A DNA stretch of 64,000 bases. It comes from Thermoanaerobaculia bacterium (GTDB lineage: Bacteria; Acidobacteriota; Thermoanaerobaculia; Multivoradales; Multivoraceae). Every line of letters starts with the position of its first letter. Positions within the stretch are counted from its first letter, which is position 1. Below, one piece after another: positions 15,953-21,166 of this stretch. Where the stretch lies: positions 22,458 through 86,457 of the forward strand of contig JAJDUI010000026.1 of NCBI GenBank assembly GCA_022826745.1, in the 5' to 3' direction. Both the position numbers and the translations under genes were made by a program. Under the pieces are notes generated by a model. That model made no database searches and had not been told where the DNA came from. It was given only the letters and a program-made list of their open reading frames with translations.

Positions 15953-16920
15953 TCGCCTGGCTCGCGGGCTTCGCGGGCGCCGGAGATCGAATCGGCGACG
16001 ATGCCGTACTGCTCACGCTCGGCGGACGGCAGTACGCGTTCAGCGTCGACACCCAGCGCGCCGGCGTCCACATTCCGGTCGATCTCGATCCCGCGGCCGC
16101 CGCCCGGCGACTGCTCGCCGTCAGTCTCTCGGATCTCGCCGCCACCGGCGCCGTACCGCGGTGGATGCTCGTAGCGCTCGGCATCGACGATGAGCACGTC
16201 GCCCGCCGTTTCCTCGCCGCCCTCGTCCGCGCCGGCCGCCGCTACGAAGTCGAACTGATCGGCGGCGACACGGCCAGGCCGACCACGCCGGGCCGGCTGG
16301 ACGCCAGTCTCACCGTGGTCGGCGAGATACCGGCGGATGGCGCCGCCCTGACCCGCGACGCCGCTCGCCCCGACGACCGGCTCTGGATCGGCGGGCCGAT
16401 CGGCGAGTCCGCCCTGGGACTTGAGCTGGTCCGCCTCGGCGCCCGGATCGCGGGGCGCCGCGCCAACCTGCCGGAGGGGCTACCCGACGGGCTGAGCCGC
16501 GTCGCCAGCCGGGTCCTTCGCCGCCATCTGGAACCGCGGCCGCAGCTCGATCTGGGCCTGCTGCTGGGCAGGCGGTCGCCGGCCGGCGCCGCGACCGACG
16601 TATCGGACGGCCTGGCCACGGACGCGGCGCGGCTCTGCCGGCGCAGCGGCGTCGGCTGCGAACTCGAGGAAGGGGCGCTCGCCCTCCGGGCAGACGCGCG
16701 CCGCCTGGCCGGCCACCTGGGCCGGGAGCCGCTCGAGCTGGTTCTGGGCGGGGGCGAGGACTATGTGCTTCTGTTCACCCTGCCGCCCGACGCCGACTCA
16801 CGCGATCCCGGGTGCCGGCCGATCGGCCGCATCACAACCCGGCCCGGCCTGAAACTGCGCCGGGTCGACGGAACGATCGAACCGCTCGCAACCGGCGGCT
16901 GGGACCACCTCAGCGATTGA
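15928..16920 (+). CDS. thiL: thiamine-monophosphate kinase
   Basis: PurM-like AIR synthase-related fold (DDAVLL..., FSVDTQRAGVHI, LSDLAATGAVPRWML, LIGGDT). Overlaps the 3' end of lon by 25 nt. Confidence 0.78.
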   Translation: MAGGEDRLIAWLAGFAGAGDRIGDDAVLLTLGGRQYAFSVDTQRAGVHIPVDLDPAAAARRLLAVSLSDLAATGAVPRWMLVALGIDDEHVARRFLAALVRAGRRYEVELIGGDTARPTTPGRLDASLTVVGEIPADGAALTRDAARPDDRLWIGGPIGESALGLELVRLGARIAGRRANLPEGLPDGLSRVASRVLRRHLEPRPQLDLGLLLGRRSPAGAATDVSDGLATDAARLCRRSGVGCELEEGALALRADARRLAGHLGREPLELVLGGGEDYVLLFTLPPDADSRDPGCRPIGRITTRPGLKLRRVDGTIEPLATGGWDHLSD

Positions 16921-17824
16921 GCGTGACGGTGATCGGCTGGTCCAGCTTCTGCAGCACCAGGCTGACCTGAGCCTCGAGCGCCGCCAGGCGCGCCTCCACG
17001 CTGCCGGCCGCCGCGGCCGCCGGCTGGCGCCGCACCTTGGCGGCCTTCGCCTTTCGCTTCCTCCGCACCGGCGCCTTCGTCACCTTGGCAACCTTGGCCT
17101 TCGGCTTCCGGCCGCGCCTGCTCTGGGAGCGGATCTCGTTGAAGACCGCCACCGCCTCCGGGTGGTAACGCCGCTTGCGGCCCTCGCCCTCGTGCGGTAT
17201 CCGGTCCCCGTACAACTTGAGGTAGCGCTGCAGCGTCGGACCGGAGATGCCCGTCTGCTGGCCGACCGCGGTAAGCGTCAGGAGCTTCGGAGCGGCGGGC
17301 CGAGCCTTCGCCGCCCGCGCCTTCCGCTTCTTCCGAGCCGGCGACTTCGCCGCCGGCGCCGCCTTCGGCTTGCGGCCCGGCTTGCTCTCCGCACGAAGCT
17401 CGCGGAACACCGCCACGGAATCCGGGTGATAACGCCGCTTGCGGCCCTCACCCTCGTGCGGTATCCGATCGCCGAACAGCCGAACGTAACGCTGCAACGT
17501 CGGATAGGAGATCTTCGTCTGCTGGCTGATGCTGGACAGCGTCAACAGGGAGGGACCGCCAGCCGCGGCCTTCGCCTGGGTTCCTGCCGCTTTCGTCGCA
17601 GCCTTCTTCTTCCCCCGCCGCTTCGTTGACCGTTCGCTCTTGAGCGCCTTGAACTCCCGGACGGCCGCGACCGGATATCGCTGCCTGCGCCCCGTTCCCT
17701 CGGACGAAATCCGGTCCTGGTACAGCTTCTTGTACCGCAGCGCCGTCGCCATCGACACACCGGCCCGACGGGCGACTTCGCCCAACGTCAACAGTTTCTT
17801 TCTTCCAGCAGCCGCTGCACTCAC
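16910..17824 (-). CDS. DNA-binding protein with three tandem MerR-type HTH modules separated by K/A/R-rich AT-hook-like linkers
   Basis: Modules LLTLGEVARRAGVSMATALRYKKLYQDRI.., LLTLSSISQQTKISYPTLQRYVRLFGDRIPHEGEGRKRRYHPDSVAVFRELR and LLTLTAVGQQTGISGPTLQRYLKLYGDRIPHEGEGRKRRYHPEAVAVFNEIR. Linkers contain PGRKPKA and RRGRKPKAK motifs. GTG start with SD AAGGAG 6 nt upstream. Confidence 0.7.
   Translation of the reverse strand: MSAAAAGRKKLLTLGEVARRAGVSMATALRYKKLYQDRISSEGTGRRQRYPVAAVREFKALKSERSTKRRGKKKAATKAAGTQAKAAAGGPSLLTLSSISQQTKISYPTLQRYVRLFGDRIPHEGEGRKRRYHPDSVAVFRELRAESKPGRKPKAAPAAKSPARKKRKARAAKARPAAPKLLTLTAVGQQTGISGPTLQRYLKLYGDRIPHEGEGRKRRYHPEAVAVFNEIRSQSRRGRKPKAKVAKVTKAPVRRKRKAKAAKVRRQPAAAAAGSVEARLAALEAQVSLVLQKLDQPITVTLNR
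17120..17800 (-). repeat. three ~264-bp intragenic tandem repeats, each encoding one HTH module
   Basis: Nucleotide self-similarity, e.g. 17161-17205 versus 17423-17467 (ggtg[g/a]taacgccgcttgcggccctc[g/a]ccctcgtgcggtatccg). Repeats 2 and 3 are roughly 75-80% identical and repeat 1 is more diverged. Confidence 0.7.
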
Positions 17825-17878
17825 GAAGTTCTCCTTGCGCCGCCCTGTGGCGCTCCGTTCGTTCCCTTACAGGAAGAT

Positions 17879-17894
17879 CACAATCGAAGCGCCA
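17879..17894 (-). promoter_or_regulatory. candidate sigma-54 (-24/-12)-like element upstream of the triple-HTH gene
   Basis: Minus-strand TGGCGC-ttcga-TTGTG versus consensus TGGCAC-N5-TTGCA. Spacing is correct and the GG is present, but the conserved -12 GC is GT. Lies between the stop of the adjacent sigma-54 activator gene and the GTG start, about 55 nt upstream of the start. Overlaps the inverted repeat GTGGCGCT(17847-17854)/AGCGCCAC(17888-17895). Confidence 0.2.
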
Positions 17895-17938
17895 CGATAG
17901 CAGAAGACAGGAACCGACGGCCCGTAACGGGAGAAAGA

Positions 17939-20900
17939 TCAGTCTTCCGTCAGAGGCTCGTAGTTGAGCTTTCGCACCAGATACGACAGGGCCTGCCGGC
18001 TGATGCCTAGAGCGCGGGCCGCCCTGGCCTGATTGCCGCCGGACTCTTCGAGCGCCTTGCCGATCAGCCGACGCCGGTATTGCTCCATCTTCCAGTGGTA
18101 GCCGCTTTGTTGAGGCCCGGCTTCCTCGACCGGCTCTTCCGGCAGTCCGAGCATGTCAACGGAAATCTCCGGACCCTCGGCAAGCGCCACGGCGCCATCG
18201 ATAGCGTTCTTCAACTCTCTGACGTTGCCGGGCCAGGAGTAGTTGCGAATCCTCGCGCGTGCCTCGTTGCTGAACTTCAGGTCCTGTCCAAGCGCGCCGG
18301 ACGTCTCCAGGAAGTGGTGCGCAAGCAACATCACGTCCCCTTCGCGATCACGTAACGGTGGTGCCTCCACATACGCTACCCTGAGGCGGTAGTAGAGATC
18401 CTGGCGGAACGCGCCGGCCTTCACCATTCCTGCGAGGTCCTTGTGGGTCGCGGAGACGAGCCGGAAATCGAGCCGCCGCGTCCGGCTCTCACCGACGCGT
18501 CGCATCTCGCCCTCCTGCAACAGGCGCAGGAGCATGCCCTGCGCCGCCCACGGCAATTCTCCGATCTCGTCGAGAAACACGGTACCGCCGTCCGCGCTCT
18601 CGAACACTCCCACCCGATCACTGTCGGCGCCGGTGAACGCACCCCGACGGTGGCCGAACAGGTCGGACAGAAGCAGGCCGTCAGGCAGCGCCGCGCAGTT
18701 CACCGCCAACCAGGGCCGGGAGGCCCGGGCGCTCGACCGGTGGAGCTGGCGCGCCAGGAGTTCCTTGCCGGTCCCCGACTCGCCGAGAATCAACACCGGC
18801 AGATCGTGGGCCGCGAACTTGTCGATCCGGGCCTGAACGTCCAGCAGAGCCTTGCTCTTCCCCACCATGCCGGTGGTGGCGGCCCTCCTGGGCTCCGCGA
18901 GTTCGGAGGCCCCGCGCCGGCGGCGCGGCGAGGCCGAAAGCCGGGTCGCGACCGCGGCCGCCAACGCCCGGGCAGGTTCATCGATTCCCTTCGCGCTGAG
19001 CACGAGTCGTCCCGCCGCCGCGTCGACCGCGAACCGGTCGCCGCCGCCTGGACCCTGGAGCAGGACTTCCCCGCTTGCATCCAGAGAGCCAAAGCCTCCC
19101 GCGGTGCCATGAACCGCGAGTCGGGCCTCCGGATGACCGGCCGCGGCCATCAGGATCCGATAGGCGTCCGCATCGGGGTCGGGCGTGGCCAGAAAGAGCC
19201 GAAGAGCCCGCCAGGGACCGATGCGCGCGCCATCCACACGCTGGACGAGCGCTTCAGCGCCGGCGGCCGAGAGGATGCGCACGGCGCTGGCCACCAGTTC
19301 CACGGGAACCGTTTCGACCTCGAGACAGACCAGGTCGTGAACAGTGAGCGCGGCGCGGAAGGGGCCTTGCGCCTCGACCTGCCGCCAGTCCGCGGCGCTC
19401 GGTGACCGCTTCTCGCCGACCGCCCCCCAGAGTCCCTCCTGTGCAGCGCCGACCGCGACCGCGCGCGCCTCGTCGCGGAGTCCGGCAAGCAGCAGCAGGG
19501 GCGACAGGTCGTCCACTTCCGCCGGCGTCCAGGCAACGATGGGACGTTCGAGCGCCTCCGAGAGTTCCTCCACCGCCTCCTCGCCACGTCCGAGCTGAAC
19601 CAGGGCACGAGCCGAGAGCAGGCGCAGCGAGCGGAGCTGACGCCACCCCGTTCGCCTCCCGCGCAGATTCTCCAGGGCGGTTTCGCAGCACTCCAGCACC
19701 GATTCCCAGCGTCCCAAAGACACGAAGAGACGCGCTTCGAGCAGGCGCGCCTCCACGACTCCGGGGGCGCTGCCCGCCATCAGGCTCTCCCGGCGCAGAT
19801 TCTCGATCGTCTCGGGGACTCCCGTAAACCGTCCGGTCCGAATCCGGATCTCCGACAGCTTCCCGTGCGCGGCGGCTCTCCCGGCAGGTCCATCGCAACG
19901 CCGGAACAGGCTCACCGCGATGTGCGCCGCGCGCTCGGCGGCGGCGAAGTCGTTCACGGCCAGTCGAACCGTCGCCAACTCGTTCCACAGGAGAGCGCGC
20001 TCGTACACGGGAAGACGCTCCCTGAGGCGCCTGAGACCGACAGCCAGCAATCGTTCCGCCTCACTGAACCGGCCGTTCGCCGAAGCGAGCCGAGCCCTCG
20101 CCAGGACCTCCATCCACTGGTCCGGCTCCCCAACCGCGGGTTCCAGCAGGCTGGCCATTGCGTCAAGCTCGCCGAGCTCCCACTTCGCCAGCGCGCACAG
20201 GACTCGACCGTGCGCCGCCCGGGGACCGATCGTGGCATCCAGCACCCTCTCCGACCAGCTTCCAATCTGATCCGAACGCCCCGCAGCCGCCTGGATTCCA
20301 ATCGCCAGTTCGCACTGTTCCAGTGCGCGCCGACCCGAGAGCGACCGGTTCTCCAACATGCTCAGACTGCGGCGCGCGGCAACCGTCCGACCTAGCCGAA
20401 GCTGAGCCCGGAGGCGCACCAGGATGTCGTCTGTTCGCCTGGAGTCCTTCACCAGCCTCAGAGCGGCCTCGAAGCGGCCGTCTTCGAGGAGGAGGCGCGC
20501 CAGCGCCGACCGGTCCTCCGGCGCGTCGGGCGGCGGGGACTCGGAGTCGGCATCTCTGACACGTTGCCAGTACGACCGCGCCGCATCGCCGCCCGCAACG
20601 ATGCGGCGGCCTTCGCCGCCGTCCATGCCCGCCAGAATCCGCCGCCACCGGGACTGCCCGGCAACAGCCACCCGCTCGCCGTCCCGATCCTCCAGGACCG
20701 CGAAGAGGGAGGCGCGCGCGGCTTTGAACTTCTGACCCAACAGAAAGGGCGCCCGAGCCAGAATGTCGGCAACCATCCGGTTTCCGGACACAGGCAGCAG
20801 TTCGTCTCGCCAGGTCTCGAAGAGGGGCCGAAGCACCGCCCGTACAGAGCTTCGACCGGGGGCGCTCTCGCTTCCGAACAGGAGCACGACGAGTTGCCTC

Positions 20901-21166
20901 AACAGGGCCTGTGGCAGCCGGTCGTCACGCACGGGCTGCACCGACGCCGGGGGAATCCGGAGGACGCCCTCAGCATCGACACGAAGCTCCTGCCAGGCCT
21001 CGAGCCGCCACCCGGCCGCCCGTACATGAGCCAGCAGGGCCGCGCCCTGAAGCAGGAACGCGGCCCGATCGCGGTCTGTCGCGACGATCTCGTTCAGATC
21101 GGTAGCCCCCGTGCCCTTGGGAACCGGTTGAAGCGACTGGTGACGGATGCGAAGAATGCGTGTCAT
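17939..21166 (-). CDS. sigma-54-dependent transcriptional activator with ~700-aa TPR-like N-terminal domain
   Basis: C-terminus carries an AAA+ sigma-54 interaction domain (LILGESGTGKELLARQLH, GAFTGA, ESADGGTVFLDEIGELP, NVRELKNAI) and a Fis-type HTH (QARAARALGISRQALSYLVRKL). The N-terminal 700 aa is helical repeats. No receiver domain. Confidence 0.85.
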   Translation of the reverse strand: MTRILRIRHQSLQPVPKGTGATDLNEIVATDRDRAAFLLQGAALLAHVRAAGWRLEAWQELRVDAEGVLRIPPASVQPVRDDRLPQALLRQLVVLLFGSESAPGRSSVRAVLRPLFETWRDELLPVSGNRMVADILARAPFLLGQKFKAARASLFAVLEDRDGERVAVAGQSRWRRILAGMDGGEGRRIVAGGDAARSYWQRVRDADSESPPPDAPEDRSALARLLLEDGRFEAALRLVKDSRRTDDILVRLRAQLRLGRTVAARRSLSMLENRSLSGRRALEQCELAIGIQAAAGRSDQIGSWSERVLDATIGPRAAHGRVLCALAKWELGELDAMASLLEPAVGEPDQWMEVLARARLASANGRFSEAERLLAVGLRRLRERLPVYERALLWNELATVRLAVNDFAAAERAAHIAVSLFRRCDGPAGRAAAHGKLSEIRIRTGRFTGVPETIENLRRESLMAGSAPGVVEARLLEARLFVSLGRWESVLECCETALENLRGRRTGWRQLRSLRLLSARALVQLGRGEEAVEELSEALERPIVAWTPAEVDDLSPLLLLAGLRDEARAVAVGAAQEGLWGAVGEKRSPSAADWRQVEAQGPFRAALTVHDLVCLEVETVPVELVASAVRILSAAGAEALVQRVDGARIGPWRALRLFLATPDPDADAYRILMAAAGHPEARLAVHGTAGGFGSLDASGEVLLQGPGGGDRFAVDAAAGRLVLSAKGIDEPARALAAAVATRLSASPRRRRGASELAEPRRAATTGMVGKSKALLDVQARIDKFAAHDLPVLILGESGTGKELLARQLHRSSARASRPWLAVNCAALPDGLLLSDLFGHRRGAFTGADSDRVGVFESADGGTVFLDEIGELPWAAQGMLLRLLQEGEMRRVGESRTRRLDFRLVSATHKDLAGMVKAGAFRQDLYYRLRVAYVEAPPLRDREGDVMLLAHHFLETSGALGQDLKFSNEARARIRNYSWPGNVRELKNAIDGAVALAEGPEISVDMLGLPEEPVEEAGPQQSGYHWKMEQYRRRLIGKALEESGGNQARAARALGISRQALSYLVRKLNYEPLTED

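Follow-up and report, generated by a model that had tools for sequence, protein, structure and literature searches.

Gene and protein architecture

We analysed a stretch of 64,000 nucleotides from a Thermoanaerobaculia bacterium (assembly GCA_022826745.1, contig JAJDUI010000026.1, positions 22,458 to 86,457), which is called the window here and from whose first letter all positions are counted. On its minus strand lies a gene for a basic protein of 304 aa that consists of three MerR-type winged helix-turn-helix (HTH) modules joined by disordered linkers and a C-terminal helix, and that may act as a multivalent architectural DNA binder. It represents an uncharacterised family which our locus scan found only in metagenome-assembled genomes (MAGs) of Acidobacteriota. 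Public databases label the homologs as 'hypothetical protein' or 'MerR regulator', and in the literature we found no description of this architecture, nor of nucleoid proteins in Thermoanaerobaculia. The parts of the gene are listed below, with module borders taken from a hidden Markov model (HMM) built from the three modules.

16910-17824, minus strand: complete coding sequence of 304 aa with GTG start, isoelectric point (pI) 11.7 (open reading frame (ORF) call)
17639-17797, minus strand: module 1, aa 10-62, A-type MerR-type winged HTH (Pfam, module HMM, predicted local distance difference test (pLDDT) >90)
17552-17638, minus strand: linker 1, aa 63-91, basic and partly disordered, with KRRGKKK (model and composition)
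17393-17551, minus strand: module 2, aa 92-144, B-type MerR-type winged HTH (Pfam, module HMM, model)
17288-17392, minus strand: linker 2, aa 145-179, disordered, rich in K/R/A/P, holding a GRKPK motif (pLDDT <50, composition)
17363-17377, minus strand: GRKPK motif after module 2, aa 150-154, AT-hook-like arm (ortholog alignment)
17129-17287, minus strand: module 3, aa 180-232, B-type MerR-type winged HTH (Pfam, module HMM, single-module model)
17006-17128, minus strand: linker 3, aa 233-273, disordered, polybasic here and hypervariable in the family, holding a GRKPK motif (model, composition)
17099-17113, minus strand: GRKPK motif after module 3, aa 238-242 (ortholog alignment)
16913-17005, minus strand: C-terminal element, aa 274-304, with a heptad helix (276-295) and a PITVTL tail (pLDDT ~93, alignment)
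17097-17576, minus strand: DNA tandem repeat of 264-bp period, 1.8 copies and 76% matches, covering modules 2 and 3 with linkers (Tandem Repeats Finder)

Orthologs share the GTG start and begin, like this protein, with VSAAAAGRKK. With 76 Lys and Arg against 19 Asp and Glu residues, the protein contains 25% K+R. Pfam assigned three stretches of it to MerR_1 (45 bits, cut-off 21.6) and three to HTH_17 (39.4 bits, cut-off 27). In an AlphaFold2 model of the full protein, run with a 48-sequence alignment, three winged-HTH units of helix, helix, beta-hairpin wing and helix were obtained at pLDDT >90, and the N-terminus and the linkers contained the residues with pLDDT <50 (1-7, 74-89, 155-177 and 244-273). 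Since the predicted template modelling score (pTM) of the whole protein was only 0.28 and confident modules were joined by disordered linkers, the full-length model is best read as beads on a string. Module 3 modelled as a single unit reached a pLDDT of 85 and a pTM of 0.68. The nearest solved fold to a single module in Foldseek was the DNA-binding domain of RacA, with template modelling (TM) scores of 0.61-0.71 and probabilities of 0.99-1.0, followed by CarH, CarA, Xis of mycobacteriophage Pukovnik, SoxR, GlnR, TraN, BldC and RdfS. Fold matches within the classical MerR family were SoxR, MerR, BmrR, CadR and GlnR.

Sequence profiles led to the same group of proteins. A first module profile (A3) matched one sequence of the Protein Data Bank (PDB), TetR, which we judged spurious. 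A broader module profile (A5) placed CarH closest (E=1.3e-4) and also recovered CarA, and the search with the whole protein returned CarH alone, with a marginal E of 0.09. BLASTP of module 3 against BldC gave no match. In hhalign, TLQRY of the module was aligned with TVTRW of BldC and GRKRRY with GGHRRY at a probability of 52%, which brings these two motifs onto the BldC positions R30, H46, R47 and R48. The BldC query sequence was checked only against the numbering of R30, W31, K36, H46, R47 and R48 in PMC5859096. In BldC, Arg30 of the recognition helix and His46, Arg47 and Arg48 of the wing contact the DNA (PMC5859096). From the fold and profile matches it follows that the modules are MerR-type winged HTHs without the coiled coil and the effector part found in classical MerR regulators. 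The sequence-only reading of the window had already proposed that the protein has three HTH modules of MerR type and lacks an effector domain. Both claims are supported, the former by Pfam scores above the cut-offs and by the fold matches, the latter by Pfam and NCBIfam scans that found no such domain in a chain whose remainder is mostly low-complexity linker.

At a fixed offset after helix 3, the modules are followed by a basic Gly-Arg motif. The protein contains KPGRKPKA at aa 148-155 and RRGRKPKAK at aa 236-244. Among 48 orthologs G150 was invariant and P149, R151, K152 and K154 nearly so after module 2, as were R237 to K242 after module 3. The pattern GR[KR]P occurred in 103 of 117 copies after module 2 and in 107 of 117 after module 3 of three-module proteins. 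The two blocks with the motifs had a mean pLDDT of 80 and 70, and confidence dropped below 50 from residues 155 and 244 onward; disordered basic surroundings are thus a feature that the GRKPK motifs share with AT-hooks. The AT-hook-like cores quoted in the sequence-only reading are indeed present, but their core is GRKP and not the canonical RGRP, which is absent from the 304-aa protein (only PGRKPK and RGRKPK occur). It is the two-module orthologs that have canonical K/R-RGRP-R/K cores, and in 110 of 153 such proteins RGRP comes after module 1. In some of them as many as 8 hook-like Gly-Arg cores occur, among them runs of (PGRP)n.

The linkers consist of 31-41% K+R and 27-34% Ala. Across the family their length ranges from 13 to 214 aa, and a net positive charge was found in at least 96% of the linkers examined, so that the basic linker composition is conserved as expected from the earlier reading. 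Linker 3 is a hypervariable, repeat-prone hot spot of the family, and acidic tandem repeats stand in its place in L012, L023, P0076, P0077, P0081 and P0083. In L012 the acidic tract has the sequence (PEEAAA)n and is encoded by about 23 copies of an 18-bp repeat. Linker 3 of L023 (OZ243982.1, 6274-6833) is made of acidic 66-bp tandem repeats (6.6 copies, 96% identity), and in the four P-numbered proteins it is likewise enlarged by acidic tandem repeats.

The last 31 residues, GSVEARLAALEAQVSLVLQKLDQPITVTLNR, hold hydrophobic residues at positions 276, 280, 283, 287, 290 and 294. Their 4-3-4-3-4 spacing corresponds to the a and d positions of a coiled coil, and AlphaFold2 modelled the helix 276-295 at a pLDDT of about 93. 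E277, R279, L280, E284, Q286, V290, L291, L294 and P297 were invariant among the 48 orthologs. Distant two-module homologs use other residues and keep the heptad pattern, for example RIKAIEKGQQSLEKKLKGLVKNLQKLFR. Because the pattern is kept even there, the heptad helix at aa 276-295 is a probable oligomerisation element. The sequence-only reading, which saw no dimerisation domain, had overlooked this conserved and confidently modelled helix. The long dimerisation helix that directly follows the DNA-binding domain in classical MerR proteins is absent; each module runs into a linker with pLDDT <50 instead.

Origin of the module repeat

The cores of modules 2 and 3 share 76% of their nucleotides and 74% of their amino acids, whereas module 1 compared with modules 2 and 3 is 40-49% identical in protein and 55-60% in DNA. 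The repeat claimed at the DNA level for units 2 and 3 (75-80% identity) was recovered with a period of 264 bp and 76% matches. Moreover, the same three-module gene is present in about 40 independent assemblies, including records labelled as complete chromosomes; OZ242040.1, OZ220742.1 and OZ241363.1 are examples of complete chromosomes with the gene. The repeat is therefore real and not a mis-assembly, which the sequence-only reading had asked to be checked.

To date the duplication, modules were compared by position. A first homolog search yielded 967 matches, and among the 120 listed homologs, from which modules were counted, 81 had three modules (down to 56% identity) and 39 had two. Between proteins, module 2 was 89% identical to module 2 and module 3 was 88% identical to module 3, as against 75% for module 2 versus module 3. 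Module 1 of three-module proteins was nearest to module 1 of two-module proteins (59%) and not to module 2 or 3, and modules 2 and 3 were both nearest to module 2 of two-module proteins (69%). Since the similarity of the modules tracks their position, the duplication is older than the three-module clade. The sequences suggest an ancestral A-B layout in which B was duplicated once before the three-module clade radiated, giving A-B-B'. That modules 2 and 3 were duplicated recently, or evolve in concert, is ruled out by the position-specific orthology. Modules 2 and 3 use identical codons at 27 of 39 identical degenerate residues, where 18.7 are expected from local usage. The DNA identity of 76% is largely what purifying selection gives in a gene with 85% GC at third codon positions.

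A recent expansion with a copy number varying between strains, as first proposed, is not supported, three modules being kept in 81 listed homologs and in 41 of the loci described below. Homologs with one to five modules, which had also been anticipated, do exist and were found in an exhaustive profile search. In the four-module ortholog L012 (OX638294.1, 5602-6620) a 216-bp repeat of 2.8 copies was found, and its identity of 91% indicates that the extra duplication in L012 is recent. Hence the copy number varies across the family, but not in the way that had been suggested for this locus.

Family members and gene order

The exhaustive profile search covered 1.84 billion representative proteins and returned 925 at E<=1e-3, 244 of them at E<=1e-10. 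Two modules are most common, and small numbers of the proteins have one, three, four (P0121, P0183) or five (P0122, P0163). For the analysis of gene order, 78 loci from a scan of one genome per species were combined with five fetched earlier (83 loci). All 78 scanned loci lie in Acidobacteriota MAGs that are mostly labelled Thermoanaerobaculia and in few cases Holophagales or Vicinamibacteraceae, and most genomes scanned have one locus. The nearest loci belong to 'Candidatus Multivorans' and Thermoanaerobaculia MAGs and are 93-98% identical over the whole protein. Three modules were counted in 41 of the 83 loci, two in 39 and four in one (L012), and the three-module loci form a Multivorans/Multivoraceae-like group. 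No relatives were found in viral contigs.

In the window, genes for a Mrp/NUBPL-type ATPase, a phosphoesterase, a 5-enolpyruvylshikimate-3-phosphate synthase (aroA-like) and a sigma-54 activator precede the target gene in this order. On its other side lie thiL (convergent), lon, nrdR and hrcA-grpE-dnaJ. The activator gene is the directly upstream neighbour:

17939-21166, minus strand: sigma-54 activator of 1075 aa, with a tetratricopeptide repeat (TPR)-like N-terminus of about 750 aa followed by AAA+ and a Fis-type HTH

The order of activator, target and convergent thiL/lon was found in nearly all 83 loci, including two-module homologs of about 40% identity, and the adjacency of activator and target is class-wide (about 70 of 83 loci). 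With one locus in most genomes scanned and a fixed place in the gene order, the gene behaves as a core gene of Thermoanaerobaculia. The 3' ends of thiL (plus strand) and the target (minus strand) overlap convergently by 11 bp (16910-16920) with no terminator-like structure between them, and close relatives (e.g. L001) have the same overlap. In Thermoanaerobaculum-like genomes an ORF of 166 aa, GAF-like by eye, lies between the activator and the target ortholog (L083, 4871-5371, minus strand); therefore, the adjacency is not absolute. The cultured Thermoanaerobaculum aquaticum has a two-module ortholog.

Several distant family members depart from the usual layout or context. The five-module protein P0122 (L085, 4001-5362, Logan DRR538840) ends in the usual C-terminal coiled coil, and two ABC-permease genes separate it from the upstream sigma-54 activator gene. 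P0121 (L084, 4001-6562, on the 12.2-Mb contig OZ375331.1) has 853 aa, with four near-identical A-type modules fused C-terminally to a large unrelated N-terminal region. Its gene directly follows that of a 1682-aa SNF2/DEAD helicase, a context unlike the usual one of the family which could be that of a defence or remodelling system. Among single-module fusions, P0214 (380 aa) has a C-terminal part that by eye resembles a Toll/interleukin-1 receptor domain (FDIFISYARED...). P0225, P0227 and P0253 share a common N-terminal domain and an acidic tract, followed by one module and the coiled coil. L064 shows one B-type module within a longest-ORF call of 1135 aa whose start codon is provisional.

Promoter-like element

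Two elements were located between the activator gene and the start codon:

17894-17905, minus strand: TTCTGCTATCGT, extended -10-like element about 70 nt upstream of the start codon, unique in the window
17831-17836, minus strand: AAGGAG ribosome-binding site, 6 nt before the GTG, conserved (ortholog alignment)

When the window was aligned with 39 orthologous upstream regions, the core TTCTGCTAT was at least 90% conserved and its flanks were not. TTCTGCTAT(C/G)GT is the one strongly conserved block upstream of the purine run that resembles a ribosome-binding site, and it is similar to an extended -10 element (TGnTATnnT). Based on the conserved -10-like block, AAGGAG and the GTG start, the gene appears to have its own promoter. 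TTCTGCTATCGT is probably an extended -10 promoter element, although it could be a binding site instead. A scan for the sigma-70 consensus upstream of the gene returned no promoter, and the -10-like element emerged solely from the ortholog alignment. Besides this block, no conserved operator-like repeat was found in the aligned upstream regions. A candidate sigma-54 promoter between the activator gene and the target (TGGCGC-N5-TTGTG) was rejected as it is not kept in the orthologs. An RNA element in the 5' untranslated region was likewise rejected (fold z-score -0.72), and Rfam gave no match anywhere in the window.

Proposed function

Domain composition, fold class, linker disorder, conservation, phyletic spread, synteny and the separate promoter-like element of this family are established. 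For its function we favour, with the chances standing about even, a lineage-specific multivalent DNA binder of the architectural or nucleoid-associated type in Thermoanaerobaculia. DNA binding, groove usage, oligomerisation, bridging and cellular abundance we only infer. Each chain would contribute one A-type and two B-type winged-HTH modules. By analogy with BldC, RacA and CarH, the recognition helix of each module, with its invariant R-Y, would enter the major groove and the basic wing (GRKRRY) the adjacent minor groove. The Gly-Arg arm (GRKPK), which starts at the end of helix 3, might add a further contact to the minor groove or the backbone. The disordered polycationic linkers could neutralise DNA charge in the manner of histone H1 tails and let the modules reach near or distant sites. 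Pairing or bundling of chains by the C-terminal heptad helix would then create a particle with at least six DNA-binding modules that may wrap, bend or bridge DNA. This architectural reading is suggested by the pI of 11.7, the 25% K+R, the Gly-Arg motifs at a fixed offset and the linkers that stay basic despite their varied length. It is further suggested by the core-gene behaviour, the fixed synteny, the promoter-like motif of its own and the absence of viral relatives and of an operator-like repeat.

Several observations weigh against an architectural role. Recognition helices and wings are very strongly conserved (89% for module 2 versus module 2) and the distinct A and B module types are maintained class-wide, which agrees with recognition of a defined composite sequence no less than with non-specific coating. 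Moreover, the motif is GRKP and not the canonical RGRP of AT-hooks, and AT-rich targets would be rare in a genome of 69% GC. Besides, the C-terminal helix is short, with only about 20 residues, and oligomerisation through it is a prediction. Finally, despite high probabilities and TM-scores, the Foldseek E-values are weak for this small domain (0.04-0.5).

A sequence-specific regulator is the main alternative and is favoured by the very high conservation of two distinct module types; we regard it as possible though clearly less probable than an architectural protein. Covalently linked modules would occupy sites made of two or three direct repeats, like BldC molecules arranged head-to-tail or like a fused CarH, and the regulon might be tied to the neighbouring sigma-54 activator. 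This would agree with the CarH DNA-binding domain as the closest sequence match among solved structures, with the match in fold, wing and helix to BldC, itself a head-to-tail binder of direct repeats, with the strong conservation of two module types by position and with the large TPR and sigma-54 activator that adjoins the gene class-wide. However, neither a conserved repeat nor a conserved operator was seen ahead of the gene or between it and the activator gene, and the sigma-54 promoter candidate of the window is not conserved. Other genes stand between activator and target in distant relatives (the GAF-like ORF, as judged by eye, and the ABC-permease genes). Since the thiL-lon order is conserved equally well, the synteny with the activator may merely reflect a stable gene order. 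Extreme basicity and H1-like linkers would also be unusual for a dedicated regulator. The architectural and the regulator reading are not mutually exclusive; for RacA, binding to specific sites as well as to DNA in general has been reported. RacA also offers a model of its own, in which the modules would sit on centromere-like repeats and the coiled coil would tether them to a polar or membrane partner for chromosome anchoring or segregation. Such an adaptor would share with RacA the order of DNA-binding domain and C-terminal coiled coil. The RacA DNA-binding domain is the top structural neighbour, and the NCBIfam RacA model gives a weak match (E=1.5e-4) over aa 187-288, which reaches from module 3 into the C-terminal helix. 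Nevertheless, this match scores 21.9 bits against a cut-off of 165, and the coiled coil of about 20 residues is far shorter than in the 176-position RacA model. Neither a partner gene nor a par/divIVA context is found among the housekeeping neighbours, and RacA belongs to endospore-forming Firmicutes. We therefore consider a RacA-like adaptor quite unlikely.

An excisionase or recombination directionality factor of a mobile element (HTH_17/Xis) would account for the HTH_17 score above the cut-off and for Xis and RdfS among the structural neighbours, but the gene has neither an integrase nor a mobile element around it, lies among housekeeping neighbours in class-wide synteny, and no relatives were found in viral contigs. 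Together with an assembly artefact as the source of the repeat, this explanation is extremely improbable, and both were rejected on the basis of the context, the search of viral contigs and the roughly 40 independent assemblies. At the other end, the architectural reading could be extended to the principal chromatin protein of Thermoanaerobaculia, a new type of nucleoid organiser that combines winged HTHs, AT-hook arms, H1-like tails and C-terminal oligomerisation and coats AT-rich DNA. This is a long shot. If it were true, the protein would preferentially coat the rare AT-rich DNA of genomes with 62-69% GC in a role analogous to the xenogeneic silencers Lsr2 and H-NS, and it might supply DNA bending for the adjacent giant sigma-54 activator.

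Detailed knowledge of nucleoid-associated and architectural proteins is limited to few phyla, and our literature search found none for Acidobacteriota. The family provides a concrete and easily expressed candidate that unites BldC/RacA-type winged HTHs, AT-hooks and H1-like tails, otherwise known separately. It would also be a natural test of how DNA recognition shifts, from palindromes to direct-repeat arrays or coating, when MerR-like domains are multimerised covalently. Moreover, the evolution of domain number is visible in it, from an A-B ancestor over a fixed A-B-B' clade to single lineages that recently reached four or five modules, with one linker expanding repeatedly by tandem repeats. 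Were the protein only a specific regulator, its interest would be modest; the present interest rests on the proposed function.

Comparison with known DNA-binding proteins

Classical MerR proteins have an N-terminal winged HTH, as does this protein, and an effector-binding domain for metals, drugs or redox signals, which it does not have. With excisionases it shares the HTH_17 winged helix, but its gene has housekeeping neighbours in place of a mobile element with an integrase. BldC of Streptomyces (PDB 6AMA, 6AMK) resembles the modules as a MerR-type winged HTH without an effector domain, and both have a basic wing ending in RRY and the Arg of the recognition helix. A TM-score of about 0.62 and 25-37% identity over some 50 columns were obtained, a marginal likeness in sequence. 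BldC multimerises head-to-tail on direct repeats and distorts the DNA (PMC5859096). It is, however, a single domain of 68 aa that forms non-covalent oligomers. Here, three modules are linked covalently, with Gly-Arg arms and a coiled-coil end, and a chain of 304 aa with linkers departs from the stand-alone single winged HTH that defines the BldC family.

RacA of B. subtilis (PDB 5I41, 5I44) is likewise built of a MerR-like winged HTH and a C-terminal coiled coil. It differs in having one DNA-binding domain, a longer coiled coil, and another phylum and biology, and the score of our protein lies far below the cut-off of the RacA equivalog model (NF009647). AT-hook-like arms or basic linkers were not present in the RacA structural matches examined. 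The N-terminal domain of CarH and CarA (PDB 5C8D, 5C8E, 2JML) is a MerR-type winged HTH and the closest solved relative by profile. In the CarH-DNA complex (5C8E), several DNA-binding domains reportedly touch tandem repeats. CarH itself is a tetramer with one DNA-binding domain and a B12-binding light-sensor domain, whereas the protein described here has no sensor domain. TraN of the Enterococcus plasmid pIP501 (PDB 4P0Z) is likewise a single chain and resembles the modules in fold; it has two excisionase/MerR-like HTH folds and binds double-stranded DNA. Unlike our protein, TraN is a compact two-domain protein of type IV secretion without basic linkers, hooks or coiled coil.

The arms resemble the AT-hooks of eukaryotic HMGA and of the Myxococcus CarD C-terminus and the minor-groove hooks of Lsr2/H-NS, which also have short Gly-Arg-Pro or Gly-Arg-Lys cores in disordered basic sequence. 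In those proteins the cores act alone, whereas here GRKP cores are joined to folded winged-HTH modules at a fixed offset. The K/A/P-rich, basic low-complexity tails of Chlamydia Hc1, the mycobacterial HupB C-terminus and Pseudomonas AlgP are comparable with the linkers. Such H1-like tails are terminal in the known proteins, but here they form inter-domain linkers whose sequence and length are not conserved and of which linker 3 is acidic in few orthologs. The protein is thus excluded from the classical MerR, BldC, RacA and excisionase families, and in this species its hooks are not canonical AT-hooks. By analogy, it would work most like a covalent multimer of BldC/RacA-type domains equipped with HMGA/Lsr2-like arms.

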